This document shows positions 1,982 through 59,216 of a stretch of 64,000 nt of DNA, piece by piece. Source of the DNA: Anaerolineales bacterium. Lineage in GTDB: Bacteria; Chloroflexota; Anaerolineae; JAAEKA01. The DNA lies in NCBI GenBank assembly GCA_020634615.1, contig JACKBI010000001.1, forward strand, positions 459,261 through 523,260, read 5' to 3'. The position numbers and the translations under genes were made by a program. The notes beneath the pieces are model-generated. The model had not been told where the DNA came from. It did no database searches and saw nothing but the letters and a program-made list of their open reading frames with translations. Each line of letters begins with the position of its first letter. Position 1 is the stretch's first letter.

Positions 1982-3225
1982 TTGACATCGAACGAGCCAA
2001 CGAAATAGCGGTCGAGCGCATGACCTCGGCGCGGCCGATACTGACCGGCGTTGCCTCGGCGCGCGACGTAATTCCCGGCATGCGCGACAACCTGCTGCTG
2101 CACGCCGGCCCGCCCATCACCTGGGACCGGGCGTCCGGTCCGCTGCGCGGCGCAATCATCGGCGCACTGATTTTCGAAGGACTGGCCACCGACGAGGCCA
2201 GCGCCGAGGCGCTGGTGCGTTCTGGCGAGGTGACGCTGGAGCCGTGCCACGAGCACGACTCGGTTGGTCCCATGGCCGGCGTGACCTCGGCGTCGATGAT
2301 GGTCAACGTGGTCGAGAATGTCTCCGGCGGCAACCGCGCCTTCTGCAACCTCAACGAGGGTTACGGCAAGGTGCTGCGCTACGGCGCCTACAGCCCCGAG
2401 GTGATCGCCAAGCTGCGCTGGATGAACGATGTGCTGGGATCGGTGCTGGCCGAGGCGCTGGCGCTGACCGGCGAGGGCGTGGACATGCGTGCCCTGCTGG
2501 CCGAGTCGCTGCAGATGGGCGACGAGGGCCACAACCGCAACAAGGCCGGCTCGATCCTGTTCACCGCCAAGCTGGCGCCCTCCATCGTGCGCACCCGTGC
2601 CAGCAAGGAGGAGATCGGCCAGGTCTTGCAGTTCATGGTCGACAACGCGCTGATCGTGCTCAACCCGGTGATGGCGGCGTGCAAGGCGATGGCCGACGCC
2701 GGCCACGGCGTCGAGGGCAGCACCATCATGACCGCGATGGCCAGGAACGGCACCGACCTGGGCATTCGCGTCAGCGGGCTGGGGAACCGTTGGTTCACCG
2801 GCCCGTCGCAGGTGCCCGACGGCCTCTACTTCCCCGGTTTCACCAGCGCCGACGCTAACCCCGACATCGGCGACAGCACCATCACCGAGACGGCCGGGAT
2901 CGGCGCGTTCGCGATGGCCGGCGCGCCCGCGATTGTCTCCTTCGTCAGCGGCACGCCGCAGGACGCGGTCAACACGACGCTGGAGATGTACGAGATCACC
3001 ACCGCCGAGCATCCTTTCTTCAAGATGCCCGCGCTGGACTTCCGCGGCACGCCGGTGGGCGTGGACATCCGCAAGGTGATCGAACTTGGCATCTTGCCGC
3101 GCATCAACACCGGCATCGCCCACCGCGAGGCGGGCGTCGGCCAGGTCGGCGCCGGACTCGCGCTGCCGCCGGTGGAGGCGTTCGAGAAGGCGCTGATGGC
3201 GTACGCGGAGATGTATCTGGCGTGA
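1978..3225 (+). CDS. DUF1116 (YlbE-like) protein
   Basis: ATGA overlap with the upstream fdrA-like gene, mirroring the E. coli fdrA-ylbE order. LLHAGPPI motif recalled from this family. Confidence 0.6.
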   Translation: MIDIERANEIAVERMTSARPILTGVASARDVIPGMRDNLLLHAGPPITWDRASGPLRGAIIGALIFEGLATDEASAEALVRSGEVTLEPCHEHDSVGPMAGVTSASMMVNVVENVSGGNRAFCNLNEGYGKVLRYGAYSPEVIAKLRWMNDVLGSVLAEALALTGEGVDMRALLAESLQMGDEGHNRNKAGSILFTAKLAPSIVRTRASKEEIGQVLQFMVDNALIVLNPVMAACKAMADAGHGVEGSTIMTAMARNGTDLGIRVSGLGNRWFTGPSQVPDGLYFPGFTSADANPDIGDSTITETAGIGAFAMAGAPAIVSFVSGTPQDAVNTTLEMYEITTAEHPFFKMPALDFRGTPVGVDIRKVIELGILPRINTGIAHREAGVGQVGAGLALPPVEAFEKALMAYAEMYLA

Positions 3226-3345
3226 CTCGTGAACCTGGAAGCGTGCGCTGAGTTCTGCGTACGCCTCCAGGTTTCGATGGTCTCGGTTCACCTCAAAGGG
3301 TGGGGTCTTGGCGTCGCGCATCGGAAGCGAAGAAAGAGAGCTGCC

Positions 3346-3693
3346 ATGAAACGACAACGGATAGCCAGTCTTGCCAGCTTGAGACCAACTGCAACGGTTC
3401 TCGGACTCTTGATTGCCGGCGTGGCAGTTGCTGCTTGCTTTGCGCCGTCAGAAGTCACATCACGACCTACGGCTGTTGTTGCTGTTGCAACAGACACAGA
3501 TGACTCGCATGCTGATGCAGCGACTGTAGTACCGGTTGCCGACGCAGACCCTGTAAGAGCCGTGATGCCGACCTCGGTCATCACGGCCAACGCTTCAACA
3601 GACTTCAACATCCTTGCGGGAACCTGGGGGTCAGAGGACTACTTCACGCCGATTATCGAGATCGATGCAACCGGCGCCTTCACATCCACTTAG
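3346..3693 (+). CDS. hypothetical lipoprotein or secreted protein
   Basis: Start MKRQRIASLASL follows a GAAAGAGAG RBS-like run. Hydrophobic signal ending ...VAVAAC (lipobox-like). GC is lower than the flanks. Confidence 0.4.
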   Translation: MKRQRIASLASLRPTATVLGLLIAGVAVAACFAPSEVTSRPTAVVAVATDTDDSHADAATVVPVADADPVRAVMPTSVITANASTDFNILAGTWGSEDYFTPIIEIDATGAFTST

Positions 3694-7958: not shown

Positions 7959-8063
7959 GGGGTAGCCGCCGGAAATCACAAACAATCATGAAAAATCACA
8001 AAGTATCATGAAATCTGGGGCGGTTTTGTAGTATGGTGGAGAAGCCACCGAGGCGTTCGGTGA
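7959..8063. promoter_or_regulatory. conserved upstream element, copy A: tandem 20-bp direct repeats AATCACAAACAATCATGAAA / AATCACAAAGTATCATGAAA, then TTTTGTAGTATGGTGGA and a conserved leader
   Basis: Near-identical sequence also at 8676-8826 and 14764-14915. Each copy ends 27-35 bp before an AGGAGG RBS and the ATG of a secreted-protein gene. Confidence 0.5.
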
Positions 8064-8498: not shown

Positions 8499-8728
8499 AC
8501 AATCGTTTCGGCGAGAAGTTGTTGACATGGAGCGTCCAGGAATTGGATGCTCTACACTATGTCTATGCATTTCCCCCCTATCCTGATCGTGATCAGAACA
8601 TGGCGTTCGCGGAGGAACTGGAGAGTTTCGTGGAGGGCTACGCCGAAGATACAACTTGCAGCAGGATAGAGGACTTCGACGCTCACTTTCCGATGATCGA
8701 CAACACGCAGGGATCACTTGGGCAGTAG
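8471..8728 (+). CDS. second homologous domain (TTG-start ORF in a shifted frame). Probably the frameshifted 3' part of the same gene.
   Basis: LLNNRFGEKLLTWSVQELDALHYVYAFPPYPD aligns with domain 1. No own signal peptide and no RBS. Overlaps the upstream ORF by 28 nt. Confidence 0.35.
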   Translation: MHQEFYALLNNRFGEKLLTWSVQELDALHYVYAFPPYPDRDQNMAFAEELESFVEGYAEDTTCSRIEDFDAHFPMIDNTQGSLGQ

Positions 8729-8826
8729 CCGCCGAAAATCACAAACAATCATGAAAAATCACAAAGTCTCATGAAATCTGAGGTGGTTTTGTAGTATGAT
8801 GAATGTGTCGCCGAGGAGTTCGGTGG
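8676..8826. promoter_or_regulatory. conserved upstream element, copy B. Includes the 3' coding end …DAHFPMIDNTQGSLGQ* of the preceding ORF, the direct repeats and the TAGTAT box.
   Basis: About 88% identical to copy C across ~150 bp. Direct repeats at 8737-8776, TAGTAT at 8792-8797. Confidence 0.5.
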
Positions 8827-14763: not shown

Positions 14764-14915
14764 TTGACGCTCACTTTCCTATGATCGACAGCACGCGGGG
14801 ATCACATGGGCAGCAACCGCCGAAAATCACAAACAATCATGAAAAATCACAAAGTCTCATGAAATCTGGGGCGGTTTTGTGGTATGGTGGATGTGTCGCT
14901 GAGGAGTTTGGCGAT
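14764..14915. promoter_or_regulatory. conserved upstream element, copy C (direct repeats at 14825-14864, TGGTAT box, conserved leader)
   Basis: About 88% identity to copy B, including the non-coding remnant DAHFPMIDSTRGSHGQ. Precedes the AGGAGG RBS and ATG of 14950. Confidence 0.5.
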
Positions 14916-26047: not shown

Positions 26048-28594
26048 ATGACAACCAACAGACCATTGTTCTATGTTCTGCTGATCGCCGCTTTCACTGT
26101 ACTCATCATCGCTGTCGCACTGGTCGGCTACAATCTGCTTTCGCTGGCGTTCGGCCAACCGCCGACGCCGACGCCCATCGCCACAGCGGCGCCCGGAGCG
26201 ACGCTGACTGCGACAGCTTCTATAACCGCTGTTCCCTCGACGACCGCGTTACCGGCGACTGTCACCCCTACCGCGTCGCCACTGCCTGGCACGCCCGATG
26301 TGCCGGCGGTGACGGTAGTCGCTGATCTGCTCAATGTGCGCTCGGGACCGGGCCTGACCTTCGACATCATCGCCACTGTGCCGGCTGGCACAGCTTTTCG
26401 CGCCGAGGGCCGGACGGAAGACGGTCTCTGGCTGCTGATCTGCTGCGTCGGCGAGCAATGGGGATGGGTGGCCAACACGGCAGAGACAGTTTCGATCAAT
26501 TTCAATCTGCTAAACCTGCCGGTGGTCACGTTCCCCGCGCCGATTGCCACCAATACGCCGCTGCCCATCTGGACCCCCGTCCCGCCGCCCTTGCCGACCT
26601 GGACGCCCATCCCGACGTGGACGCCGTGGCCGACTCCGACGCCGGTTCCACCACCTCAACCGACTGCGACGCCGGTTCCTGGCGGCGCATGGCTGGGCGA
26701 ATATTACAACAACAGCGACCTGCTCGGCGCGCCGGTGATGGTGCGCTACGATGCGGCGATTCGCTTCAACTGGGGTTTTGGCAGTCCCGCGCCCAACATC
26801 AATCCTGACTTCTTCAGCGTTCGCTGGACCACCAATCAGTGGTTCGACGCGGGCGATTACCTCTTCACGGCGCGCGTTGACGACGGCGTACGCGTTTTTG
26901 TGGACAACGTGCAGATCATCAACGCCTGGCAGGACGGCGGCGTCCGCAACGTTTCCGGGACACGCACCCTGGCTGCCGGCTGGCATGCCGTGCGTGTCGA
27001 GTACTACGAGCGAACCGGCGAGGCGCTGATCGACTTCTCCTGGCAGCGCCAGCAATATTTCCCTGAATGGAAGGGCGAGTATTACAGCAATCCTGATCTG
27101 GCCGGTGCGCCGACCGTGGTGCGCAACGATCTCGTGATTGCGTTCGATTGGGGCCTGGGCAGCCCGGCGCCCGGCATTCCAGTGGACAACTTCAGTGTGC
27201 GCTGGACGCGCAACTTCTACTTCCTGGAGTCCGCGACCTACCGCTTTGTGGTGCGCGTCGACGACGGCGCGCGTGTGCTGGTGGACGATGTCGTCGTTAT
27301 GAACGGCTGGACCGACGGGCCGGCGCGCGACTATGTTGTGGAGCGCTGGTACAACGCCGGCTGGCACAAGATCGAGGTGCAGTATTACGAACGTGTTGGC
27401 ACCGCGCTGATCTTCTTCAACTGGGCGTCGGTTCCGCCCACCGTCATGCCGGTGACTGCCACACCGACGGCGACCGCTGTGCGCACGGCGACGCCTGTGC
27501 CGACGTGGACTCCGACGCGGACGCCAACTCGCACACCGACACGCACTCCAACGGCTACACCGACCAGCACGGCAACCAGTACCGCCGTTGTTACTGCTAC
27601 CGCAACGCCAACCGCTACCGGAGGCGGCAGCGAGCCAACCGCGACACCAACGCCATCGGTAACCGCGACTGCAACAGCAACCAGTACCGCGACGCCAACC
27701 AACGTTCCCGGTGAGACAGCCACGCCGACGCCCACCGATGCTGGCAGCGAGCCCAGCGCGACGCCTACCGCCACTGCTACCGACGAACCAACCGGCACGC
27801 CAACCCCGACGCGCACCGCGACCGCAACCGTCACCGAGGAAGCGACGGCCACGGCTTCGCCAACGCTCACCACGACGGCAACCGCCACGGATGAGCCCAC
27901 CGCTACTGCGACGCCAACGCGCACGGCAACCGCAACTGCTACTGATGAACCCACCGCTACCGCGACGCGCACGGCGACTGCAACTGCCACGGAAGAGCCC
28001 ACTGCTACTGCGACGCCAACGCGCACGGCAACCGCAACTGCGACTGATGAACCCACCGCTACCGCGACGCGCACGGCGACTGCTACCTACGAGCCAACCG
28101 AGACGTCCACGCCGACACCGACGCGCACCCCAACTTCGACGCCCTTCATCACGACCCGACCAACCCGAACGCCGACGCCGGTCGTCAAGCCAACACAGCC
28201 CGCCATTCGCGCCAGCATAGCAATCTCACCGACCGCCGGCACTGTCGGCACATCGATCGTAGTGACCGGCACCAACTGGACGCCGCGTGACCGTATCGTC
28301 ATCACGATGGTGGCGGCAGATGCTGATACCACTGAACAACCGCCGGTCCTGGCTCGTGTAAGAAGTGATCGATCTGGCCGGTTCAGCGTGACCATCGTGG
28401 TGCCCAGAGACCGCAATCTGTTGAGCCAACGGCTGGTGTGGGTGGTGGCGACCAGCAGCACGGACCGCATGACCGCCACAGCGCCTTTTGCTATCCGTCA
28501 GGCCGGCGGCGGCGACGTGGCGCCGGTGGATACGCCGCCACCTGACAGCGGAATTCCGCCCGACAGCGAGCCGCCGACCTCGAGTGATGGCTAG
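26048..28594 (+). CDS. large secreted multidomain protein: signal anchor, SH3b domain, two PA14 domains, Thr/Ala/Pro-rich tandem-repeat region, C-terminal domain
   Basis: SH3_3-like ([40 protein letters not shown]). Two PA14-like blocks (GEYYNN/SNPDL…VRWT…VDDG…YYE). Repeats [18 protein letters not shown]. Confidence 0.6.
27870..28100 (+). repeat. in-frame tandem DNA repeats (~51-54 bp units) encoding [18 protein letters not shown]-type repeats
   Basis: At least 4 near-identical units visible in both DNA and protein. Confidence 0.5.
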
Positions 28595-28699
28595 ATCGGC
28601 AGGAAAGACAGGCCTGCCAGCGATTGTGATCAGTGAACAATTTCAAGCGAGAACTGACTGTCCTCGCTGAGCGAATTCGGCAAGAGTGAAATCGACAGA

Positions 28700-30260: not shown

Positions 30261-30301
30261 AAAAACGAGGCTCCTGGCACATGCGAGGAGCCTCGTTTTA
30301 T
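30261..30301. terminator. bidirectional rho-independent terminator (AAAAACGAGGCTCCT-loop-AGGAGCCTCGTTTTATTG) between convergent genes
   Basis: 12-bp perfect stem flanked by an A-tract and a T-tract. Confidence 0.65.
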
Positions 30302-35328: not shown

Positions 35329-35472
35329 TACCGGTCCATCGAAACCTGAACTGAAAACGGGCCGCTGTGCAGGTGCACAACGGCCCGTTTTTCATTTTCG
35401 AATTGGAACGCGGCGTGGATTAGCTGCCGCGATGGATAGATTGCGCCGCAGACGCACAGCTGATTGTGTCGA

Positions 35473-36699: not shown

Positions 36700-36975
36700 T
36701 GGTCATTCCTTCTCGTTTGGTTTCGTCAAGACAGCGTTAGTGTAAATCATTGATGTTCAGAAGATGTTAAGATACGCTTTGGATTTGGTTGGGGGAGAAG
36801 GGTGAAACCCGACCCGGATGGTCGTGCTGATGGGCATCGCGATTGCAAGGGCTGACCCGACCATGTCGTCCCCCGGCGATAAACGAGATGTAGACGGCGA
36901 TGCCGGCTGTTCGATCAAACAAAACGGCGCCGGTTCAGGTGCTGAACCGACGCCGTTCATCCAAATCAACGCACT

Positions 36976-38169: not shown

Positions 38170-38297
38170 CGAATGCTCCTCAAAAAACGTGATGCGTGAT
38201 GCGCAAAACGTGACCGGAAATCAGAAGTGATCTTGGTCACGTTTCACGTTTCACGCATCACGAAGCGATGCTCGCCGGGAGGCAAGAGTCGGTGCGG

Positions 38298-45004: not shown

Positions 45005-45850
45005 TTACCGCTCGATGGGAACTCCCACCAGATTGCCCCACTCGGTCCAGCTCCCGTCGTAGTTGCGCACGTTGGGGTAGCCCAGCAGGTAGGTCAACAC
45101 GAACCAGGTGTGGCTGGAGCGCTCGCCAATGCGGCAGTAGGCCACGACGTTGTCATCGTGATGCAAGCCCTGCTCCTCTTCATAGATCGCGCGCAGCTCG
45201 TCGGCCGACTTGAAGGTGCCATCGGCGTTGGCAGCCCGACTCCAGGGAACGCTCTTCGCGCCGGGGATGTGCCCGCCGCGCATCGCGCCTTCCTGCGGAT
45301 AGTTGGGCATGTGCAGCATCTCGCCGCTGTACTCGCCCGGCGAACGGACATCCACCAGCGGCTGGCCGGCCAGCACGTGCGCCATGACCTGATCACGGAA
45401 GGCGCGGATCTTGTAATCGGCGCGCGCCTGGGCATGGTAGGAAGCAGCGGGGTAGCTGGGCACGTCCTTGACCATGGGACGCCCTTCGGCTTCCCATTTG
45501 GCGCGCCCACCGTCCATCACCTTGGCGTTGACATGGCCGAAGAGGTTGAACACCCAGAACGCATAGCAAGCCCACCAGTTGTTTTTATCGCCGTAGAACA
45601 CGACCGTGGTGTCGTTGCCGATGCCGTTTGCCGACAACAGCGCTTCGAACTTCTCGCGTGTCAGGTAGTCTCGTCGGACGGCGTCGTTGAGATCCTTCTG
45701 CCAGTCGATCTGCACCGCGCCGGGGATGTGCCCAATGTCATACAGTAAGATGTCTTCGTTGGACTCAACGATACGAACCGACGGATCCTTCAGGTGTTCG
45801 GCGACCCAATCGGTCGTCACCAGCACCTCGGGATGAACGTAACCCTTCAT
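45005..45850 (-). CDS. sseA: thiosulfate/3-mercaptopyruvate sulfurtransferase (tandem rhodanese domains)
   Basis: Two rhodanese modules with the catalytic [11 protein letters not shown] motif. 281 aa. Confidence 0.7.
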
Positions 45851-45874
45851 TCTTACACTCCCTTTTCTCGGAAA

Positions 45875-46004
45875 GTAATCGGTAATCAGTGATCAGTAAC
45901 AAGCAATCTGTGATCAGCAACCGGACATCCACAATCTCCGTCAGCTTGCCGCTAATCACTGGCTACTGGTTACTGATCACCGATCACTGATTACCGATCA
46001 CCGG
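45875..46004. repeat. heptamer tandem arrays in inverted orientation (GTAATCG GTAATCA GTGATCA GTAACAA… and …GTTACTG ATCACCG ATCACTG ATTACCG ATCACCG) flanking a ~45 bp spacer
   Basis: 7-bp periodicity and arm complementarity seen directly, between the rhodanese gene start and the sufD stop. Confidence 0.5.
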
Positions 46005-46005
46005 T

Positions 46006-47327
46006 CTACATGTGGATCTTGCGCGCGATGACTTGTTCGAGCTTGCGCCGCACGCCTTCGACCGGCACGCGGTTGAGCACTTCCTCGAAGAAGCCGGTGA
46101 CGATCATCTGCTCGGCCTGGAACTTGCTCAGCCCGCGCGCCATAAGATAGAAAAGGTACTCCGGTTCGATCTTGCTGATAGTCGCGCCGTGCGTACAGCG
46201 CACGTCGTCAGCTTCGATCTCCAAACCGGGGATGCTGTCGGCGCGCGCACGCCGGTCCAAAACCAGATTGTTGTTCTTCTGGTATGCATCGGTCTTCTGG
46301 GCATGCGGCCAGACCTTGATGCTCCCTGAGTAAACCGAGCGAGCACGGTCGCGCAGCGCGCCCTTGAAGAGCAGGTCGCTGGTGCAGTGGTCGGCGAAGT
46401 GGTTCTGCATGGTGTGGTGGTCGATGTGCTGGCGCCCGCTGGGGAAGTAAAGTCCCAGCAACTCGCCGTGCCCCCCGCGCTCCAGCATCTGCATCTCCAG
46501 GTTGATCTTGCTGAGCTTGCTGCCCCAGGAGCTGAGAATCCAGGTCAACTGGGCGTCGCGCAACATCTGCGCCTGCTGGGTGCTGAAGTGCCACGTGTTG
46601 GTATTCCAGTCCTGACCGTGCATGTAGCGCACGACTGCACCGGGGCGGGCGAAGATCTCGACCACGCCGCTGTGGAAAGCTGCGCCGTTGTCCTTGCTGA
46701 TCAGGTCATCGACGTAGGTGACCTGGCTGTTTTCTTCGGCGATGATGAGCGTGTGCGCAAAGTCTGCCACACCGCTGCTGATCGAGGTGACGCCATGAAA
46801 TGGCAGTTCGATCTGCACATTGCGCGGCACGTAGAGCACCGTCCGCCGGTGACCGGCGCGGCATGCAGTGCAGTGAACTTGTTCACGTCCACCGCGACAT
46901 TGTCAGTCATGAAATGCTTCTGGATCAGCTCAGGATGCTGACGAATGGCGGTGTCGAGGTCGGTGAAGATGACACCCTTGGCCGTCAGCTCGTTGTCGAT
47001 ACCGTGGTAGCGCACGGCGCCGTCTTCGGTCACCAGCGCCGCGGCAGCGTTGATCGACTCAAGCTCTTCCCGCAGCGCAGGCGTCAGATCAGCGACATCA
47101 CCGCGCATGTCGTCAGCGGTGGCTGCCAGCTTGAATTTGGCGATGTCCAGCCCGGTCAGCCGGGTGCGCCGCCATTCCTCTTCCTCGCCGGTCGGCCACG
47201 GAATCTCTTCAAAGAAACGCCAGGCGCGATGACGAAGGTCAGTGAACCAGATCGGTTCCTGTTTCTGCTGCGAGAGCGAGCCAACGGCCGCCGCGCTGTC
47301 CAGTCCGATCTCACTCTTAGTTAGCAC
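46006..47327 (-). pseudogene. sufD: Fe-S cluster assembly protein SufD, disrupted by a frameshift near 46845
   Basis: Two overlapping ORF fragments (47327-46701 and 46839-46006) both match SufD. The junction …ALHAAPVTGG / VLYVPRNVQIELPFHG needs 1 nt restored at GGCGGAC-GGTG. Confidence 0.6.
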
Positions 47328-47361
47328 TTGTAGCAGTCATATCTGTATCTCAAATGGGCAA

Positions 47362-47466
47362 GGAATGGAAGTGGACGGGTAGACAGGTGAACAAGTAAAC
47401 AGGTTTACAGGTCGCTTCTCGGTTTCCCTGTCTACCTGTTTACTTCCGTTTCCTTGTTTCCTTTTT
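47362..47466. repeat. octamer tandem arrays in inverted orientation (GGTAGACA GGTGAACA AGTAAACA GGTTTACA … CCTGTCTA CCTGTTTA CTTCCGTT TCCTTGTT)
   Basis: 8-bp periodicity seen directly, in the sufB-sufD intergenic spacer. Confidence 0.45.
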
Positions 47467-47472
47467 CCAATA

Positions 47473-48877
47473 CTACCTTCCATCTGCTGGCTGGATCAGC
47501 CGGTTCATCTCGACCGCGTATTCCATGGGCAGTTCCTTGACCATCGGCTCGATGAAGCCGCTGACGATCATGGTGGCCGCCTCTTCCTCGTTCAGGCCGC
47601 AGCTCATCAGGTAGAAGATCTGCTCTTCGTTGACCTTGCTGACGCTGGCCTCGTGGCCGACTTGCACGTCCTGCTCGTCGATCTCGATATACGGGTAGGT
47701 GTCGGAGCGGCTGTGGTCATCCAGCAGCAGCGCGTCGCAGACGACCGTCGACTTGGAGCCGGTGGCGCCCTTGGCGACCTTCAGCAGGCCGCGATAGCTG
47801 GCCCGCCCGCCGTTCTTGCTGATCGACTTGGAATGATCTTGGACGAGGTGTCCAGGCGCGCCGTGCACCACCTTGCCGCCGGCGTCCGGGTCTGGCCCTG
47901 GCCGGCGAACGCGATGGACAGGATCTCACCATGGGCGCGGCCCCATCATGTAGACTGCCGGGTACTTCATGGTCACCTTGGGCCCAGATTGGCATCGATC
48001 CACTCCATGGTCGCGTCCTCATAGGCCATGGCGCGCGGTCACCAGATTGTTGTAAACGTTGTTGGACCAGTTCTGAATGGTCGAGTAGCAGCAGCGCAAC
48101 CGCCTTTTTGACCACGATCTCGACGACGGCGCTGTGCAGCGAGTCGCTGGCGTAGATCGGCGCGGTGCAGCCTTCGACGTAGTGGACGTTGGCGCCCTCT
48201 TCGACGATGATCAGCGTGCGCTCGAACTGGCCCATGTTTCTGGGCGTTGATGCGGAAGTAGGCCTGCAAGGGGGAATGTCAACCGTCACGCTTTCGGCAC
48301 GTAGACAGAAGCTGCCACCCGACCAGACGGCCGAATTCAGCGCTGCAAACTTGTTGTCTGACGGCGGGATGATCGAGCCAAAGTACTCGCGGAAGATGTC
48401 TTCATGTTCGCGCAGGCCACTGTCGGTGTCCAGGAAGATGACGCCCAGATTGGTCCACACTTCCTGCAGCGAGTGGTAAACCACTTCGGACTCGTACTGC
48501 GCCAACGCCGGCCAGGAAGTTGCGCTCCGCTTCGGGAATGCCCAGACGCTCAAAGGTGTTCTTCATGCTGTCTGGCATGTCATCCCAGCTCGTGCCAGCC
48601 TTTTCGGTGGGCTTGAGGTAATAGTAGATGTCGTCGAACTGGATCTCGCTCAGGTCAGCGCCCCACGTGGGCATTGGCTTGGACAAGAAGATGTCCAGCG
48701 AGCGGTGGCGAAGTCACGCATCCACTCCGGTTCATTCTTCATGACCGAAATCTGATCCACGATCTCGTGATCGAGACCCCTGCGCGACTTGAAGACGTAC
48801 TCCTCCGGCATGCTGAAGCCGTACATGTACTCGTCTTTTACGCCAGCCAGTGCTTCGCGGTCACTTGTTGTTGCCAT
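47473..48877 (-). pseudogene. sufB: Fe-S cluster assembly protein SufB, fragmented into at least 4 ORF pieces by multiple frameshifts
   Basis: Fragments carry the SufB N-terminus (…YGFSMPEEYVFKSRRGLDHEIVDQISVMKNEPEWM…), middle (…[29 protein letters not shown]…) and C-terminus (…DEQDVQVGHEASVSKVNEEQIFYLMSCG…), with nonsense stretches between them. Confidence 0.65.
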
Positions 48878-48938
48878 GGTGTTCTCCTATGGAATCAGGC
48901 CCGGTTTGTGCGGCGCCTGGATTACTCGTCGTGTGTCG

Positions 48939-49047
48939 CCAGTAAACAGTGAACAGTGTCCAGTAAACAGTTTTCAGAAGATCTCTTGCAAAACAGTGAC
49001 CTCTGGTTCCGGTCACCGATTACTGATCACTGGTTACCGATTACCGT
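48939..49047. repeat. heptamer tandem arrays (CAGTAAA CAGTGAA CAGTGTC CAGTAAA CAGTTTT … TCACCG ATTACTG ATCACTG GTTACCG ATTACCG) in the sufC-sufB spacer
   Basis: Same repeat family as 45875-46004 (shared TTACCGATTAC / TGATCAC modules). Confidence 0.5.
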
Positions 49048-49048
49048 C

Positions 49049-49874
49049 CTACGCCGCCACCAGCTCCGGCTCGCCAAACTCATCGCGCACCGACTGGTAG
49101 CCCTGGGCTTCCAGTTCGTGAGCAACTTCGATACCGCCGCTCTTGACGATGCGGCCGTTGTAGAAGACGTGGACGAAGTGCGGCTGCACATAGTTCAGGA
49201 TCTGCTGATAATGGGTGATCAGCAGAATGCCGAGGTTCGGTCCGGCCAGCTTGTTGACCCCCATCAGAGACAACACGCAGCGCGTCGGATGTCCAGCCCG
49301 CTGTCGGTCTCGTCCATGATGGCGATCTTGGCTGAAGCATGGCCATCTGCGGGGATCTCGACCCGTTTCTTCTCCGCCGCCGCTGAACCCTTCGTTCAGG
49401 TAGCGCTTGGCGAAGTCGCGATCGACGTGGAACTCGTCCATCTTGTCCAGCAGCTCGCGGCGAAAATCGCGCATCGGCATCAAATTGGAACCGATGACAC
49501 CCTGGCGGCCATCGCCGTCGGCAGGCTTGTCGGTGAAACCGCGCATGTTGCTGACAGCAGTGCGCAGGAAGTTGGCCATGCTGACGCCAGGGACGGCGAC
49601 AGGGTACTGGAACGCCAGAAACAGGCCCTTGCGCGCCCGCTCGTTAGGCTCCATATCCAGAACGCTTTCACCGTCCAGCAGAATATCGCCCTCGGTCACT
49701 GTGTAATGGGGTGACCCATGATAGCGTAGGACAGGGTACTCTTGCCGGAACCATTGGGACCCATCAATGCGTGGATCTCGCCCTGGCGGACGGTCAGATT
49801 GACGCCCTTCAACACTTCCTTCCGCCGTCGTTGACCGCCACGTGAAGGTTCTGAATAACTAGCTCACTCGTCAT
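49049..49874 (-). pseudogene. sufC: Fe-S cluster assembly ATPase SufC with several frameshifts
   Basis: The true N-terminus [18 protein letters not shown]… is out of frame with Walker [12 protein letters not shown], with …[13 protein letters not shown]… and with MAMLQP…DALRVVS. Each shift falls at a C- or G-homopolymer. Confidence 0.65.
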
Positions 49875-49939
49875 GGAAACGTATCTCCTTGAAAAAATTT
49901 TGTCTTGCTTACCTGGTAGATTGAAATTTGGTAGATCGG

Positions 49940-50627
49940 TTACGTGGCAGGCTGGAAGCTCGTCGCGTGGCGATTGCCGCCTGCCGCAGGAATTGCGTTG
50001 ACCACGAACTGACAACTGTTGTGGCCGTCGTGGATGCAGTTGCCCAATGTCACATCCGCTCCCAACACCTGGGAGAACGTGTCACGCTCCATCTCGCATA
50101 CGTCACGGTGCACAGAAGACAGGTCGTGATACGGGCAGTTGTACTCGTGCAGGATCATGACCCCGTTGGCATCCTCGATGTCGGCGCGGATGCCGCGGCG
50201 ATCCAGCAGGACCGAAAGTTCGGGAATCCTGTCGCCCAGAGCAACGCCCTTGATCTGACGGCTGTACTGCATCGCCAGTTTGTCGCCCACCCGGCTCAGC
50301 AGGTAGCGCAGCTTGGCCGTGCCCTCGGTCTCCAGCAGCTCGTGGATCAGGTCCAGCGCCAGCTCATCGGAATAGCAGGCAAACAGGCTCTGCGACCGTT
50401 CGGTGAGCTTGTAGACGTTGCGTGGGCGGCCAACGCCCTGTCGCTCTCTGGTCATGATAACCAGGCCTTCGGCCGACAGGCTGGCCAGTTGCTGGCACAG
50501 CGGTCGCGGTGACGCCCAACATGTCTTCCAGGTCTTTGATGCCAGCGGTTGTGTTGCGCAGGAGGTATTCGAGAATTTGCCCAGCGGGGGTTGAACTGTT
50601 TTGAATGCCCTGAGTCGCCATGGTCAC
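49940..50627 (-). pseudogene. sufR: SufR-like ArsR-family HTH regulator, frameshifted
   Basis: N-terminal HTH fragment (…AGQILEYLLRNTTAGIKDLEDMLGVTATAV…) and C-terminal fragment (IMTRERQGVGRPRNVYKLTE… with CPYHD…C…C Cys ligands) lie in different frames. Confidence 0.5.
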
Positions 50628-50667: not shown

Positions 50668-50715
50668 AGTATATGCCAGCAAAGTAATTTTGTCAAATTA
50701 ATCTGCGAAAATTAC
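50668..50715 (-). promoter_or_regulatory. near-consensus sigma70-type promoter for the sufR operon (-35 TTGACA, 17-bp spacer, -10 TATACT on the minus strand), overlapped by the inverted repeat GTAATTTT-N16-AAAATTAC
   Basis: Hexamers and spacing read from the sequence. The inverted repeat at 50684-50715 overlaps the -35. Confidence 0.45.
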
Positions 50716-54414: not shown

Positions 54415-54657
54415 ATGGATCGCTTGGGATCAGCGCACCTTTTTCCTACCACGTCCCGCCGCCAGATGGCGCAGAACGAGGTGCTGCTGGCTGCCCGGGT
54501 GACATGTTGGGCTGGCGCGCGCTGCCAGTGTCGGGGCGGCGCCATTGGCGGACGGACGTTTAGTCGCAATGCAGTCGTCTATGGGAACGGCGAGGCCAAG
54601 GCAATCAGCTCCTGGCCTCGCTTTTTCGATGCCAGGGAGCAAGAGGAGTTTTCATGA
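54415..54657 (+). CDS. small Cys-containing ORF (80 aa) translationally coupled (ATGA) to the giant gene; possible leader peptide
   Basis: High-GC coding-like codon usage. The stop overlaps the ATG at 54654. Contains CWAGARCQC. Confidence 0.25.
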   Translation: MDRLGSAHLFPTTSRRQMAQNEVLLAARVTCWAGARCQCRGGAIGGRTFSRNAVVYGNGEAKAISSWPRFFDAREQEEFS

Positions 54658-57600
54658 ACCGCGTTAAACAGGCAATCTTCAAGACATGTCCGAAATCGGG
54701 TAAGGTCGTGGGCCTGCGCCGGCCAGAAGGTTGGCGCCGGATATTCATTCCGCTGATTGGTTTTGCGGCGCTGGTGTGGTTTCTCGTGCGAGTGGTTCCC
54801 AAACCGAGCCGGGCTGCCTATCCCTGCCAGCGGGTTGCGATGCCACTGGCGTCCGGGTTCGTTCTCTGGCTTGCAGGCATGGCCGGGGCAACCGTTGCGT
54901 TTGGAAAGGCGCGCAATCGCTTCCAGCAGGCGCGGTTCGCGACCGGCGCTCTGGCAGTGGTGGTCGCTGTCGTGGGTGTTGGTTGGGGCGTATTGACGTT
55001 GCAGGCGCCGGCAGCGGCTGAAACGGTTGCGTATACGGCCCATCCGGCCAACCAACCCATCGGTGTTGCCAAGGGATTGGCGCCCGGTCGTGTGGTCTGG
55101 GTCCATGACCCTGATCTGACCGACTGGGCCGGACCGGGAACCGGCGAGCGGTGGTGGCAGCACGTCAGCCAGTCGGTTGCGAATCAGGTGATGTCGCAGG
55201 CGCTGCGCAGCTATGCCAACACTACGTCCGACGCCGCGGCCTGGGATGCAATCTTCCGCAGTTACAACGGCGGCGCTCCCTACCAATCCAACCAGAAAAT
55301 CGCCATCAAGATCAATCTGACGACTTCGAACGCTGGCTCAGGCACTGCCAACATCGACAGCAACTACAACTGGGTTCCAGGCGGCGGTCTGAACTACGAC
55401 GCGATCGGTGAGTCGCCGCAGTTGATGCACGCGCTGCTGGATCAACTCGTGAACAAGGCCGGTGTGCCACAGGCCAACATCACTATCGGTGATCCGACCG
55501 GTCTGTGGATCAACGAGTTGTACGTGCCGCTGCACAACGATTTCCCCAACGTGGTTTACCTGGACAACTATGGTCAGCAGGGGCGAACTCGGGCCTCGTT
55601 CAGCTCAGTTCCGATGTACTGGAGCACTTCTGAGGCCAACGGCAAGACGCAGGACTATGTGCCGAACTATTTTGCCCAGGCTGACTATATGATCAATCTG
55701 GCGATCCTGAAGACCCACGATCGCAACGGCATTACTCTGACCGCCAAGAATCACTTCGGCTCGATGCTGCGAACGCCGGTGGCGCAACTGCGCGGCGTGA
55801 GCGGCAACTGGCTGGAGTTGCACCACTTGCTGCCCAGCGCGCCCTCGGCCAGTGAACCCAAGGTGCCGACCATGGGCAACTACCGGCCTCTGGTGGATCT
55901 CAACGGCAACCGAAACCTGGGCGGCAAGACTCTTCTCTATATGGTAGATGGCATCTTTGGCGGCAAGAACTGGAACTCCACGCCGTACACCTGGGCGATG
56001 ACTCCGTTCAACGGCGACTGGCCGTCCAGCCTCTTCCTTTCCATGGACCAGGTGGCCATCGACTCGGTGGGTTTCGACTTCCTGAGCCAGCAATGGCCTG
56101 ATCAGGCGCTGGTCAATGAGGGTGTGCAGGACTATCTGCACGAGATGGCGCTGGCCAATAACCCACCTTCGGGCACATGTTACGATCCGGAACACGATCA
56201 GACGTGCCAGCAGAGCATGGGCGTCCACGAACACTGGAACAACCCGATTGACAAGCAGTATACCCGCAATCTCGGCACGGGCAACGGCATCGAATTGATG
56301 TACATCAATCCGTTGACACCGACGCCTACACCAACGGCAGTGCCGCCGACTGCCACCAATACACCGGTGCCACCCACGGCCACCAACACAGCAGTGCCGC
56401 CGACCAACACGCCAGTGCCACCGACGGCCACCAACACAGCCGTGCCGCCAACCAATACACCGGTGCCGCCGACGGCCACCAACACAGCGGTGCCGCCGAC
56501 CAACACGCCAGTGCCACCGACAGCTACCAACACAGCAGTGCCGCCGACCAACACGCCAGTGCCACCAACGGCTACCAACACAGCAGTGCCGCCAACCAAT
56601 ACACCGGTGCCACCGACGGCCACCAACACAGCAGTGCCGCCGACCAATACGCCGGTGCCGCCGACGAGCACACCGGTGCCACCCACCGCGACGCCGACAC
56701 AATCGGTCTGCGGCGTACAGACCGTGCTGTTCGTTGGTTCCACCAATCCGCTGCCGGCCCGCGATCAGGTCCTGGTGAATCGTCTTACCGGGCAGGGCTA
56801 CGCGGTGGTTGTGCGCAGTGAGAGCCAGGCGGTGTCGTCCGATGCCAGCGGCAAGGCGCTGGTGATCATCTCGGATTCGGTCACTTCTGGCAATGTCAAC
56901 ATCAAGTTCCGCGATGTGGCGGTGCCTGTGATGACCTGGGAACCCGCTTTGCTGGACGACATGATGATGACCGGGACAGCCTACGGAACCAACAGCGGCG
57001 ATGCATCGAACCAGACGCAACTGGTCGTTAACAGCGGCCATCCGCTGGCAGCCGGCCTCAGTGGAACGGTGACGACCAGCAACGCCGCGCAGATGTACTT
57101 CTGGGGCGTACCCTCGGCCAGCGCTGATATCATCGCGACGATCGTCGGTCAGTCGGGACATGCGGCAATCTTTGCCTACGAGCCGGGCGACGCGATGATC
57201 GGCTTGACGGCGCCGGCCCGCCGGCTTGGCTATTACAATGGCTACGGCGCCGACTTTACCGCCGCCGGCTGGGGGCTGTGGGACGCCGCGGTGACATGGA
57301 TGGTTAACTGCCAGGCGCCGACCGCTACTCCGATCCCGACTAATACACCTGTGCCGCCGACAGCGACTCCGACCTACACGCCGACGCGGACACCAACCGC
57401 CACGCCGGTGCCGCCCACTGCGACGCCGATCCCGACCAATACACCGGTGCCGCCGACAGCCACTCCGACCTACACGCCAACGCGGACACCAACCAATACG
57501 CCGGTGCCGCCCACTGCGACGCCGATCCCGACCAATACGCCAGTGCCACCGACAGCGACTCCGACCTACACGCCGACGCGGACACCAACCGCCACGCCGG

Positions 57601-59216
57601 TGCCGCCAACTGCCACGCCGCTTCCAACTAACACCCCGGTGCCGCCAACAGCGACTCCGCTTCCAACCAACACACCAGTTCCGCCAACAGCGACTCCGGT
57701 GACCGTTGATGGTGTCGTGCTGCGCACCGATCTTGCGCCGGTAATCGACGGAACAATCGACCCGGTCTGGAGCGGCGCCAACCAGTATCCCATCCAGAAC
57801 GTGATCATCGGCAGTGCTGTGCCGGCGGCTGATCTTTCAGCTTCCTACCGGGCGCTATACGACGCCACCAACCTCTACCTGCTGGTGACCGTCAGCGATG
57901 AGACACTGATCAACGACAGCGGAACTTCCTGGTATTTCGATGACGGCGTCGAGCTATTCGTGGACGGCGATCACAGCCAGGGCGCCAGCTATGATGCCAA
58001 CGACTTCCAGTTTGGTGTGCGCTGGAGCGATGGCAACACGATCATTGCCGGCGCGAACTCAGCGCCGGTGCCCACTGGCGCGGTGGCCAGCCTGGCTTCT
58101 GCGCCCGGCGGTTACCGGCTCGAGATGCGGCTGCCTCTGTCGGGGCTGTCCATCAACCCGACGGCTGGCTACCAGTTTGGACTGGAAGTGCAGGTCAACG
58201 ATGACGATGACGGTGGAGATCGGGACACCAAGATCTCCTGGCACAGCCTGGATGACAACACCTGGATGTATCCAAGCCAGTTCGGAAGCGTAGCGCTCAG
58301 CAGCAGTACGGTACCAACACCGGTGCCGCCAACTGCCACCAACACACCAGTGCCGCCGACAGCAACACCTGTGCCGCCGACAGCGACGCCAGTCCCGCCG
58401 ACAGCGACGCCAGTGCCGCCGACACCCACACCGACTACACCTCCTCCCACAACCAACATGATGTACGTCAGTTCGACCACGGCTGGCAATGTTGGCGGGG
58501 TGGCGTTCAACGACGAGGATATCCTGGCATACAACAAGACGACCGGAGCATGGAGCATGCTGTGGGACGGCTCAGACGTTGGCATCACTGCCGATGTGAT
58601 CGCTTACTCGGTGCGGACTGACAACTCCATTCTGATGAGCTTCGCCAGCGCCATCACTGTATCCGGCCTCGGTACCGTGGATGACTCCGACATCGTGCGC
58701 TTCGTGCCCACGTCGTTGGGAACAAACACGGCTGGCAGCTTTGAGTTCTACTTCGACGGTTCCGACGTTGGACTGTCCAACAGCAGTGAGGACATCGACG
58801 CCATCACCTTCACGGCTGACGGTAAGCTGGTCATCAGCACGGCCGGATCGTACAGCGTGCCGGGTGTGTCCGGCGCCGATGAGGACTTGCTGGTCTTCAC
58901 TGCTTCCCAGCTTGGCCAGACTACCAGCGGAACCTGGGCGATGTACTTCGACGGATCTGACGTTGGCCTGAGCCAGTCATCGTCTGAGGATGTCAACGGC
59001 GCCTGGTTGGACGTGACCACTGGCAAGCTCTATCTGACGACCGTCGGAGCTTTTTCGGTGACCGGCGTGAGCGGTGACGGCGCAGATATCTTCATCTGCA
59101 CGCCGACATCCCTGGGATCGAACACCGCCTGCACGTACGGCCCTGGTCTCTATTGGGACGGTTCGGCCAACGGCTTCGCCGGCGAGATAGTTGATGGGTT
59201 TACCATCGTCCCATAA
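54654..59216 (+). CDS. giant cell-surface multidomain protein (1520 aa): N-terminal 3-TM anchor, DUF362-like domain, PT-repeat linker, class-I-glutamine-amidotransferase/ThuA-like domain, PT linker, CBM9-like domain, PT linker, C-terminal YFDGSDVGL-repeat domain
   Basis: N-terminal 550 aa is ~65% identical to the product of 59301..62375. Motifs AIKINLTT, AILKTHDRNGITLTAKNHFGS. CBM9-like block (…LYLLVTVSDETL…FDDGVELFVDGDH…). 4 internal repeats of (F/Y)xDGSDVGL. Confidence 0.65.
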   Translation: MNRVKQAIFKTCPKSGKVVGLRRPEGWRRIFIPLIGFAALVWFLVRVVPKPSRAAYPCQRVAMPLASGFVLWLAGMAGATVAFGKARNRFQQARFATGALAVVVAVVGVGWGVLTLQAPAAAETVAYTAHPANQPIGVAKGLAPGRVVWVHDPDLTDWAGPGTGERWWQHVSQSVANQVMSQALRSYANTTSDAAAWDAIFRSYNGGAPYQSNQKIAIKINLTTSNAGSGTANIDSNYNWVPGGGLNYDAIGESPQLMHALLDQLVNKAGVPQANITIGDPTGLWINELYVPLHNDFPNVVYLDNYGQQGRTRASFSSVPMYWSTSEANGKTQDYVPNYFAQADYMINLAILKTHDRNGITLTAKNHFGSMLRTPVAQLRGVSGNWLELHHLLPSAPSASEPKVPTMGNYRPLVDLNGNRNLGGKTLLYMVDGIFGGKNWNSTPYTWAMTPFNGDWPSSLFLSMDQVAIDSVGFDFLSQQWPDQALVNEGVQDYLHEMALANNPPSGTCYDPEHDQTCQQSMGVHEHWNNPIDKQYTRNLGTGNGIELMYINPLTPTPTPTAVPPTATNTPVPPTATNTAVPPTNTPVPPTATNTAVPPTNTPVPPTATNTAVPPTNTPVPPTATNTAVPPTNTPVPPTATNTAVPPTNTPVPPTATNTAVPPTNTPVPPTSTPVPPTATPTQSVCGVQTVLFVGSTNPLPARDQVLVNRLTGQGYAVVVRSESQAVSSDASGKALVIISDSVTSGNVNIKFRDVAVPVMTWEPALLDDMMMTGTAYGTNSGDASNQTQLVVNSGHPLAAGLSGTVTTSNAAQMYFWGVPSASADIIATIVGQSGHAAIFAYEPGDAMIGLTAPARRLGYYNGYGADFTAAGWGLWDAAVTWMVNCQAPTATPIPTNTPVPPTATPTYTPTRTPTATPVPPTATPIPTNTPVPPTATPTYTPTRTPTNTPVPPTATPIPTNTPVPPTATPTYTPTRTPTATPVPPTATPLPTNTPVPPTATPLPTNTPVPPTATPVTVDGVVLRTDLAPVIDGTIDPVWSGANQYPIQNVIIGSAVPAADLSASYRALYDATNLYLLVTVSDETLINDSGTSWYFDDGVELFVDGDHSQGASYDANDFQFGVRWSDGNTIIAGANSAPVPTGAVASLASAPGGYRLEMRLPLSGLSINPTAGYQFGLEVQVNDDDDGGDRDTKISWHSLDDNTWMYPSQFGSVALSSSTVPTPVPPTATNTPVPPTATPVPPTATPVPPTATPVPPTPTPTTPPPTTNMMYVSSTTAGNVGGVAFNDEDILAYNKTTGAWSMLWDGSDVGITADVIAYSVRTDNSILMSFASAITVSGLGTVDDSDIVRFVPTSLGTNTAGSFEFYFDGSDVGLSNSSEDIDAITFTADGKLVISTAGSYSVPGVSGADEDLLVFTASQLGQTTSGTWAMYFDGSDVGLSQSSSEDVNGAWLDVTTGKLYLTTVGAFSVTGVSGDGADIFICTPTSLGSNTACTYGPGLYWDGSANGFAGEIVDGFTIVP
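56344..56690 (+). repeat. in-frame 48-bp tandem repeat (about 6.5 units) encoding TNTPVPPTATNTAVPP
   Basis: Near-identical DNA units seen directly inside the giant gene. Confidence 0.6.
57321..57700 (+). repeat. in-frame 96-bp tandem repeat (about 3.5 units) encoding [32 protein letters not shown]
   Basis: Seen directly. A second Pro/Thr linker of the giant gene. Confidence 0.55.

Follow-up and report, generated by a model that had tools for sequence, protein, structure and literature searches.

In a 64,000-nt stretch of the Anaerolineales bacterium assembly GCA_020634615.1 (Chloroflexota; contig JACKBI010000001.1), which is referred to here as the window, three intergenic spacers of the suf gene cluster contain tandem arrays of 7- or 8-nt units arranged as inverted pairs. 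The spacers are sufD/rhodanese (S1, 45851..46005, 155 nt), sufB/sufD (S2, 47341..47472) and sufC/sufB (S3, 48878..49048), and all are read on the minus strand. A fourth tandem-unit hairpin lies at 38188..38262, also on the minus strand, in the gap/pgk spacer, flanked by the genes for GAPDH and phosphoglycerate kinase. Our favoured interpretation, to which we give roughly even credence, is that these four tandem-unit hairpins are operon-internal palindromes, built by slippage, that act as stem-loops uncoupling adjacent cistrons. Their role would probably be to tune message survival or read-through between genes. They would then be the same kind of element as the hairpins of cyanobacterial STRRs (short tandemly repeated repetitive elements) and the inverted GGGAATC arrays of Xanthomonas, occurring in a new phylum and with several unit families per operon.

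Arrays and hairpins of the suf and gap/pgk spacers

Tandem Repeats Finder detected two period-7 arrays in S1 (45874-45917, 6.3 copies; 45975-46003, 4.1 copies) and two in S3 (48940-48971 and 49015-49046, 4.6 copies each). In S2, a repeat search found four copies at 8-nt spacing (47369-47412) and a complementary array (47419-47466). Together with the complementarity of the arms, these results confirm the inverted 7- and 8-nt arrays that a preliminary description of this DNA had reported from the rhodanese/sufD, sufD/sufB and sufB/sufC spacers. On the mRNA, the 5′ arm of S1 (45951..46003, minus strand) consists of units of the RGTRAYC family (CGGTGAT CGGTAAT CAGTGAT CGGTGAT CAGTAAC CAGTAGC CAGTGAT), and the 3′ arm (45874..45918, minus strand) of complementary heptamers (..CTGATCA CAGATTG CTTGTTA CTGATCA CTGATTA CCGATTAC). 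The arms are 44 nt long, 80% complementary and separated by a 32-nt loop. The S2 arms are built of octamers on the minus strand, AGGAAACA AGGAAGCA AGGAAACG AGTAAACA GGTAGACA GGGAAACC on the 5′ side and CCTGTTTA CTTGTCTA CCTGTCTA CCTGTCCA CTTCC on the 3′ side, and their inverted pairing covers 29-nt arms at 79% complementarity. S3 has five RGTRAYC units in its 5′ array (49011-49046, minus strand) and CTGTTTA CTGGACA CTGTTCA CTGTTTA in its 3′ array (48940-48971, minus strand); its arms measure 30 nt and are just 73% complementary.

When folded as minus-strand RNA, S1 reached -69.7 kcal/mol (z -8.0) and S2 -46.8 kcal/mol (z -5.3), and none of 200 shuffles was as good in either case. The corresponding values for S3 were -53.2 kcal/mol and z -2.3 to -2.8, with 4/200 shuffles as good. 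The proposal that each spacer folds as a long hairpin holds for S1 and S2, therefore, and is marginal for S3 (z -2.3). In the S1 mRNA the stop codon is followed by 3-4 nt (ACC), the hairpin, about 11 nt, GGGAG and the start codon, the stretch from stem to AUG being UUUCCGAGAAAAGGGAGUGUAAGA. In S3 the two heptamer arrays are followed by a small second hairpin and then AGGAG. The spacer is, in effect, a hairpin plus a ribosome-binding site.

The sharing of modules between spacers was borne out: RGTRAYC units are common to S1 and S3, and AGTAAACAG is common to S2 and S3. Across the 64 kb there are 10 occurrences of the two-unit pattern RGTRAYCRGTRAYC, against an expected 0.02, and all of them are within S1 or S3. 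An ungapped hairpin scan of the whole window ranked S2 first (score 28; arms 47362-47392 / 47422-47452), followed by S1 (23) and the gap/pgk element (21), with arm periodicities of 7 or 8. A strict detector of array pairs, which itself missed S2 and S3, found none in 20 shuffles. A short, lone piece of the same unit family, TGTGATCAGTGAACAA, is present at 28620-28640 in a 105-nt spacer between two plus-strand open reading frames (ORFs), and has no inverted partner.

A search of the window against Rfam gave no match at gathering score, only sub-threshold matches to generic miRNA-precursor hairpins (E 0.07-0.8); these are at chance level, and membership of a known RNA family was rejected. Repetitive extragenic palindromic (REP) sequences and bacterial interspersed mosaic elements (BIMEs) are extragenic palindromes of proteobacteria, often situated between co-transcribed genes, that are thought to affect mRNA stability (PMC3733652). 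The elements described here might be mobile palindromes of this type, or of the MITE type (miniature inverted-repeat transposable element), spread by a transposase: they are intergenic palindromes that lie downstream of genes, the S2 octamer GGTAGACA has an internal GTAG, and Chloroflexi are reported to have REPs with a GTAG tag (PMC3733652). REPs and BIMEs, however, are 20-40-bp, near-identical, multi-copy sequences with a GTAG/CGTC tag and an associated transposase, whereas each element here is unique and internally periodic, with its own unit mix. The 9-mers of each spacer recur only between S1 and S3 and between S2 and S3, and no spacer has a further copy in the 64-kb window, as a multi-copy REP would. 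Neither terminal inverted repeats nor target-site duplications can be seen, and the elements hold orthologous positions in different lineages, an argument against recent insertion. An origin of this kind appears very improbable.

The gap/pgk element has the 5′ arm CGTGATG CGTGAAA CGTGAAA CGTGACC and the 3′ arm GGTCACG TTTTGCG CATCACG CATCACG, followed by UUUUUU and GAGGAG; it folds with z -7.3 and is identical in two other assemblies. The gap/pgk spacers of three further lineages also contain heptamer-unit hairpins, with the units GTGAAAC, GCGCAAC and CGTAAYR, and two of the three are followed by U-runs. In one gap/pgk spacer, from a related Caldilineales metagenome-assembled genome (MAG; L215 2321-2500), a GGTGATCGGTAATCGGTGACC array of the RGTRAYC family is found upstream of a separate CGTAAYR heptamer hairpin.

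Ordinary intrinsic terminators are also in use in the genome of the window, where gene-cluster ends carry perfect, non-periodic, G+C-rich hairpins with U-tracts. Two perfect-stem hairpins with flanking A/T runs (30262-30299 and 35353-35392) look like bidirectional terminators, and another perfect-stem hairpin lies downstream of pgk (36923-36957). S1, S2 and S3 do not have the G+C-rich stem and directly following U-tract of an intrinsic terminator, and the gap/pgk element has the U-tract. Were the elements leaky intrinsic terminators, i.e., attenuators, transcription would stop partially after each cistron and expression would decrease along the operon. Consistent with this are the U-run after the gap/pgk stem, the U-runs of the relatives L213 and L215, and the U-tracts of metagenomic RGTRAYC hairpins located directly after an ORF (L092, L163, L169). 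The sufC-first gene order also fits the excess of SufC in the SufBC2D complex. On the other hand, a consensus scan found no promoter-like or U-tract terminator sites in S1-S3, the S1 stem being trailed by UUU alone and that of S3 by no U-run, and the stems differ from this genome's terminators, which are perfect and G+C-rich, in being long, imperfect and rich in A/U. Attenuation as the general function of these elements is unlikely.

Conservation of architecture and turnover of units

Near relatives were retrieved by exact-protein look-up; in a scan of genome contigs the best match was at 86% identity. In three of them (L087, L088 and L007, with rhodanese proteins 93%, 91% and 86% identical), tandem-unit hairpins are present in all three suf spacers. 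The ARGWAACA octamer family of the sufB/sufD spacer is retained in all four lineages. The sufC/sufB spacer has RGTRAYC units in the window and GGTAGATT octamers in L087 and L088, while the sufD/rhodanese spacer has RGTRAYC in the window, CAGTTAT in L087 and L088 and, in L007, a length of 301 nt with about 12 + 24 copies of CAAGTAGA. The same design, built from other units, is seen in more distantly related Chloroflexota: TAGGGAT in L009, GTAGTCG in L011, GGAGATT in L015, and CGGAATG and AACGTAA in L035. Among the folded suf and gap/pgk spacers having such hairpins, 21/24 gave z <= -2.8. The comparison with related genomes that the preliminary description had proposed finds tandem-unit hairpins recurring, in close and distant Chloroflexota, with other units.

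A survey of 393 kb of Chloroflexota DNA gave 59 long hairpins, 19 of which were periodic, with a period of 7 (n=13), 8 (n=5) or 9 (n=1) and no others. Loci fetched via the rhodanese gene included periodic hairpins in eight Chloroflexota, two Gemmatimonadota and one Verrucomicrobiia locus, most of them starting a few bases after a stop codon and lying between co-directional ORFs; the actinomycete loci fetched in the same way had none. Tandem-unit hairpins are common in Chloroflexota. Their supposed unfamiliarity in this lineage is true of the literature searched, coverage of which was incomplete and in which no paper linking Chloroflexota with heptanucleotide repeats was found, but not of the DNA. 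A metagenome scan for (RGTRAYC)4 returned at least 120 contigs, and the 80 that were analysed ranged in G+C content from 0.35 to 0.69. About a third of the arrays on these 80 contigs form the 5′ arm of a hairpin, in some cases followed by U-tracts. Other arrays are long and direct-only, with as many as 20 units.

Turnover is also visible within the population, where the 5′ arm of S2 exists as two haplotypes (L001-L004 and L090 versus L005 and L006). Between L001 4396-4418 and L006 (window ~47436-47452) there are 9 differences in 23 nt, compared to 0.46% over 12.8 kb. The haplotypes are equal in length and similar in fold energy (-45.5 versus -46.3 kcal/mol), and the second (L005/L006) comes closer to the 3′ arm's reverse complement. 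Judged from these sequences, the difference looks like whole-unit replacement and not point mutation. Slipped-strand mispairing may add, remove and swap whole units, and template switching from arm to arm would keep the arms complementary. The two processes together would allow the architecture to last at any one spacer even as the sequence of its units changes.

The position of the elements relative to genes is regular. In 30/33 elements the stem starts 0-17 nt past the stop codon of the upstream gene. At the other end, the 3′ arm stops a short distance ahead of the next Shine-Dalgarno sequence. Classification of context relied on crude longest-ORF calls and on loci that are not independent: of 20 periodic hairpins, seven were left unclassified, and the remaining 13 comprised 11 between co-directional ORFs, two between divergent ORFs and none between convergent ORFs. 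Non-periodic long hairpins, with the same crude calls and non-independent loci, lay between convergent ORFs in five cases and between co-directional ORFs in one. The co-directional share of intergenic bases is 49%.

Stop triplets (TAA, TAG or TGA) number 76 in the 5′ arms of the 33 elements, where 54.7 +/- 5.0 are expected (the counts are non-independent, the arms being repeats), and 27 in the 3′ arms, where 24.9 are expected and there is no enrichment. A 7- or 8-nt period makes such triplets cycle through the reading frames, and a three-frame stop-codon trap was considered. It was not adopted, because all three frames are covered in only 9/33 arms and the repeat counts are non-independent.

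The arrays could instead be read as rows of binding sites for a sequence-specific RNA- or DNA-binding protein, for instance CsrA (at GGA), ribosomal protein S1, a TRAP-like protein or a regulator that reads repeats, or as imitations of the Shine-Dalgarno sequence by which ribosomes are tethered. Short units repeated periodically are typical for multimeric binders, the S2 units contain AGGA, GGUGAUC is complementary to the 3′ tail of 16S rRNA, and TAACTGA repeats have been proposed as regulator sites in Beggiatoaceae (PMC4679880). However, the spacers of a single operon differ in their units, as do close relatives when the same spacer is compared, and most of the units would be hidden in the stem. 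The 5-mers complementary to the 16S tail number 24 in the 5′ arms, against 30.9 +/- 6.5 in composition-matched shuffles; mimicry of Shine-Dalgarno or anti-Shine-Dalgarno sequences by the 5′ arms was rejected, there being no enrichment beyond composition. We consider binding arrays to be very unlikely.

Several observations weigh against hairpins that act in the mRNA. S3 is weak as a single hairpin. The elements are heterogeneous, in that the gap/pgk element and several metagenomic relatives have U-tracts and are terminator-like, and S1-S3 have none. A strand-symmetric register search counted 61 G-U and 62 A-C mismatches on the sense strand, and the summed fold energies of the sense (-1270 kcal/mol) and antisense (-1239 kcal/mol) strands are near equal, the sufB/sufD spacers even folding better as antisense; there is, therefore, no sign that the sense RNA has been selected pair by pair. 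Lastly, some relatives have short suf spacers free of hairpins (the sufC/sufB overlap of L015, and the 28 and 56 nt spacers of L016), and the element is thus dispensable for suf function. A tally based on minimum free energy structures had been weakly positive for an excess of G-U pairs (105 versus 76), but with the strand-symmetric count flat, selection on the sense RNA was rejected as a general signature. S1 is a sense-biased exception (-69.7 sense versus -49.7 antisense kcal/mol; 11 versus 3 G-U pairs). The purine-rich arm comes first in 25/27 elements, and this was rejected as evidence of orientation, since for a palindrome the property is identical on both strands. Both DNA strands of the elements fold and, given the symmetric mismatch spectrum, complementarity of the arms looks to be maintained at the DNA level and not by pair-by-pair selection on the mRNA.

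The same observations invite a non-adaptive explanation, in which slippage in permissive, AT-richer spacers, with template switching to make the inverted copies, generates by-products that are functionless and tolerated. The equal numbers of G-U and A-C mismatches (61 versus 62), the about equal folding of both DNA strands, the fast turnover of units with differences between strains, and the lack of elements in some relatives would all be expected. Among the 80 metagenomic contigs analysed, many (RGTRAYC)n arrays are without an inverted partner, and the introduction to one study describes heptanucleotide repeats as the most abundant class of 5-11-nt repeats in most bacterial genomes and attributes them to slippage (PMC4679880). 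Against this explanation, the hairpin design persists at three suf spacers and at gap/pgk across lineages, even after replacement of the units; the arms remain complementary (z -3 to -11), the stems adjoin the stop codon, and the classifiable elements are skewed to co-directional contexts (11/13, compared to 49% of intergenic bases). A functionless origin is less likely than the favoured interpretation but a serious competitor to it.

The suf locus and its frameshifted patch

The genes of the suf cluster (45005-50621) are all on the minus strand, in the mRNA order putative helix-turn-helix (HTH) regulator, sufC, sufB, sufD and rhodanese-type sulfurtransferase. The closest proteins all come from Anaerolineae, Caldilineales or other Chloroflexota MAGs. 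The first gene (49940..50621, minus strand, 227 aa) is SufR-like by position only, its ortholog giving weak MarR_2/HTH_11 matches. Upstream of it, on the same strand, is the promoter-like site TTGACA-17-TATACT (50668..50696), which agrees with 11/12 consensus positions and is the sole strong promoter consensus match in the region. The sufC gene, encoding the ABC ATPase (49049..49875, minus strand), is frameshifted in the window and encodes 274 aa in other assemblies. The sufB gene (47473..48877, minus strand; 471 aa in other assemblies) has many frameshifts in the window, and sufD (46006..47340, minus strand; PF01458; 443 aa in other assemblies, L001 4514-5845) is frameshifted by window indels at 46844 and 47292-47297. 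The limits given for S2 use the true sufD start at 47338-47340. The rhodanese-type gene (45005..45850, minus strand) is last in the cluster and is an intact ORF of 281 aa (PF00581); a 100% identical copy of the protein is present on 78 contigs.

Arrays had been described in every suf spacer. This is correct for sufC/sufB, sufB/sufD and sufD/rhodanese, but the 65-nt sufR/sufC spacer (49876-49939 on the minus strand, mapped from L001) has no array and, in its L001 version, is unstructured (z +0.8), and the spacer 3′ of the rhodanese gene has an ordinary, non-periodic hairpin.

Seven independent assemblies of the same population (ENA WANG18 metagenomes, ERZ27309139 and NCBI GCA_023957165.1) were compared with the window. 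Their locus is ~98.9% identical to it, and their genes are intact at 227, 274, 471, 443 and 281 aa. The window differs from them at 43 indel positions, every one within 46844-50496, and the flanks show substitutions only. S1 is identical in 5/7 of these assemblies and has one substitution in the remaining two, S3 has 1-2 substitutions, and in S2 a 6-nt indel and a handful of substitutions separate them from the window. The frameshifts in 46844-50496 are probably local consensus error or strain mixture and not true pseudogenes. It had been suggested that the repeats may explain why this patch assembled or sequenced poorly, a suggestion that finds no support, as 36 of the 43 indel positions are in sufD, sufB, sufC and sufR coding sequence (the other seven are in S2) and S1 and S3 are essentially identical in the other assemblies.

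The indels and the 6-nt difference in S2 might be taken to indicate that the arrays themselves are an assembly or sequencing artefact, made from collapsed or chimeric low-complexity reads. The indels lie mostly in coding sequence, however, and related species have analogous elements. Seven independent assemblies, from different samples and with intact genes, reproduce the spacers, and therefore an artefact, which the preliminary description had named as what would overturn it, is hardly credible.

Other repeats were seen in the window and its relatives. Tandem repeats rich in Pro/Thr occur in long ORFs at 26048-28594 and 54654-59216; their periods are 24-144 nt, and they are of a kind typical for linker regions of extracellular type. 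An element of about 75 nt, GCCGCCGAAAATCACAAACAATCATGAAAAATCACAAAGTNTCATGAAATCTGGGGCGGTTTTGTAGTATGGTGGA, has three copies (~7965-8045, ~8728-8805 and ~14815-14895), each just 5′ of a plus-strand ORF; within it are a 20-nt direct repeat and a TAGTAT resembling a -10 box, and it looks like a shared promoter/operator. The sufB gene of a Thermoflexales MAG (L035 ~1830-3390) has an in-frame insertion of ~1.2 kb that by eye resembles a Hint/intein and homing-endonuclease region.

Related repeats and a possible role

In cyanobacteria, STRR heptamer arrays form hairpins between the co-transcribed hupS and hupL genes, which have been proposed to raise transcript stability, to couple translation or to act in termination (PMC2670836). 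As cited in the same paper, Jackman & Mulligan (1995) described nif clusters as having 'highly variable but structured intergenic regions'. The elements of the window resemble STRRs in having tandem 7-bp units in hairpin-capable spacers between co-transcribed genes, and in keeping the structure while close relatives vary. Three of the four elements (S1, S3 and gap/pgk) are heptanucleotide arrays, and S2 has a period of 8. STRR hosts are filamentous or heterocystous cyanobacteria, whereas the host here belongs to the Chloroflexota. STRRs number about 100 per genome; the 64 kb of the window contain four elements. The units of the STRR families are CCCCAGT (STRR1), TTGGTCA (STRR2) and CAACAGT (STRR3), and those found here, RGTRAYC, ARGWAACA, CGTGAWR and CTGTTTA, belong to none of them. 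The nearest are presumably the plus-strand AAACAGT and GAACAGT of S3, which are one base from STRR3. Likeness to STRRs, as put forward in the preliminary description, is therefore sound as an analogy, i.e., hairpin arrays between co-transcribed genes, and does not extend to membership of the sequence family, as units, octamers and host all differ.

The GGGAATC heptamers of Xanthomonas are intergenic, and in 70-75 cases per genome they are paired on opposite strands and capable of forming stem-loops (Rehm et al. 2015, PMC4692102). Species differ in repeat length but retain the type, single or inverted (PMC4692102). The close inverted pairing of heptamer arrays is found here as well. In Xanthomonas, however, a single G-rich unit family that could form G-quadruplexes is used throughout the genome, and in the window several families occur in one operon. 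The GGGNATC units of Xanthomonas and Nostoc (GGGAATC/GGGGAYT) are absent from S1-S3, the units of which contain no runs of three or more G, though L009 has TAGGGAT arrays.

TAACTGA heptamers are direct repeats found in Beggiatoaceae, Cyanobacteria and Bacteroidetes, with 169 direct sets and one indirect, and are predicted to be unstructured (MacGregor 2015, PMC4679880). Their other strand, CAGTTAT, is the unit of the L087 and L088 sufD/rhodanese spacer and is one base from CAGTGAT and CAGTAAT of the window. Like the elements described here, they are intergenic and near start codons, but the latter are inverted, stem-forming pairs.

For the possible role of the hairpins, one parallel is selective RNA processing and stabilisation (SRPS). 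In the Clostridium cip-cel operon, 3′-end stem-loops set the stoichiometry of the operon products, as shown experimentally (PMC4423207, PMC8219983). In both cases stable stem-loops are directly 3′ of cistrons, in operons for subunits of multiprotein complexes, and here too, inside an operon, a cistron's 3′ untranslated region holds a stable stem-loop, which is the structural feature of SRPS. The Clostridium stems are not made of tandem units and their role is experimental, while that of the suf and gap/pgk hairpins is inferred. The suf spacers would be transcribed within a sufR-sufC-sufB-sufD-rhodanese mRNA. Each stem-loop might block 3′-to-5′ decay of the upstream segment or, alternatively, offer a double-strand processing site, or cause leaky termination where a U-run follows. 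Any of these would uncouple the abundances of neighbouring cistrons, as in SRPS.

A broader proposal, which we regard as speculative and rather unlikely, is that the hairpins belong to a cross-phylum class of evolvable operon-internal 'rheostats', built by a dedicated mutational mechanism in which slippage and arm copying proceed in steps of 7-8 nt. Its scope would take in the elements of Chloroflexota, Gemmatimonadota and Verrucomicrobiota; cyanobacteria and Beggiatoaceae have related heptamers with a CAGT core. If it is correct, periodic hairpins would be used inside operons and non-periodic, perfect hairpins would mark operon ends, and the number of units, together with the load of mismatches, would determine the extent of read-through, processing or decay, and thereby the stoichiometry of complexes such as SufBC2D.

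Hypervariable, low-complexity palindromic spacers of this kind can mislead gene callers, predictors of non-coding RNA and miRNA hairpins, and strain-resolved assembly. The role of STRR-type heptamer hairpins has been a question since about 1990, on evidence that is nearly all cyanobacterial, with one study in Xanthomonas. The same architecture is now seen in two housekeeping operons (suf and gap-pgk) of an uncultured member of the Chloroflexota, with units that are replaced and strain-variable. This gives a comparative handle on whether the structure is selected or regenerated by mutation, and on how it may affect gene-dosage ratios within operons.

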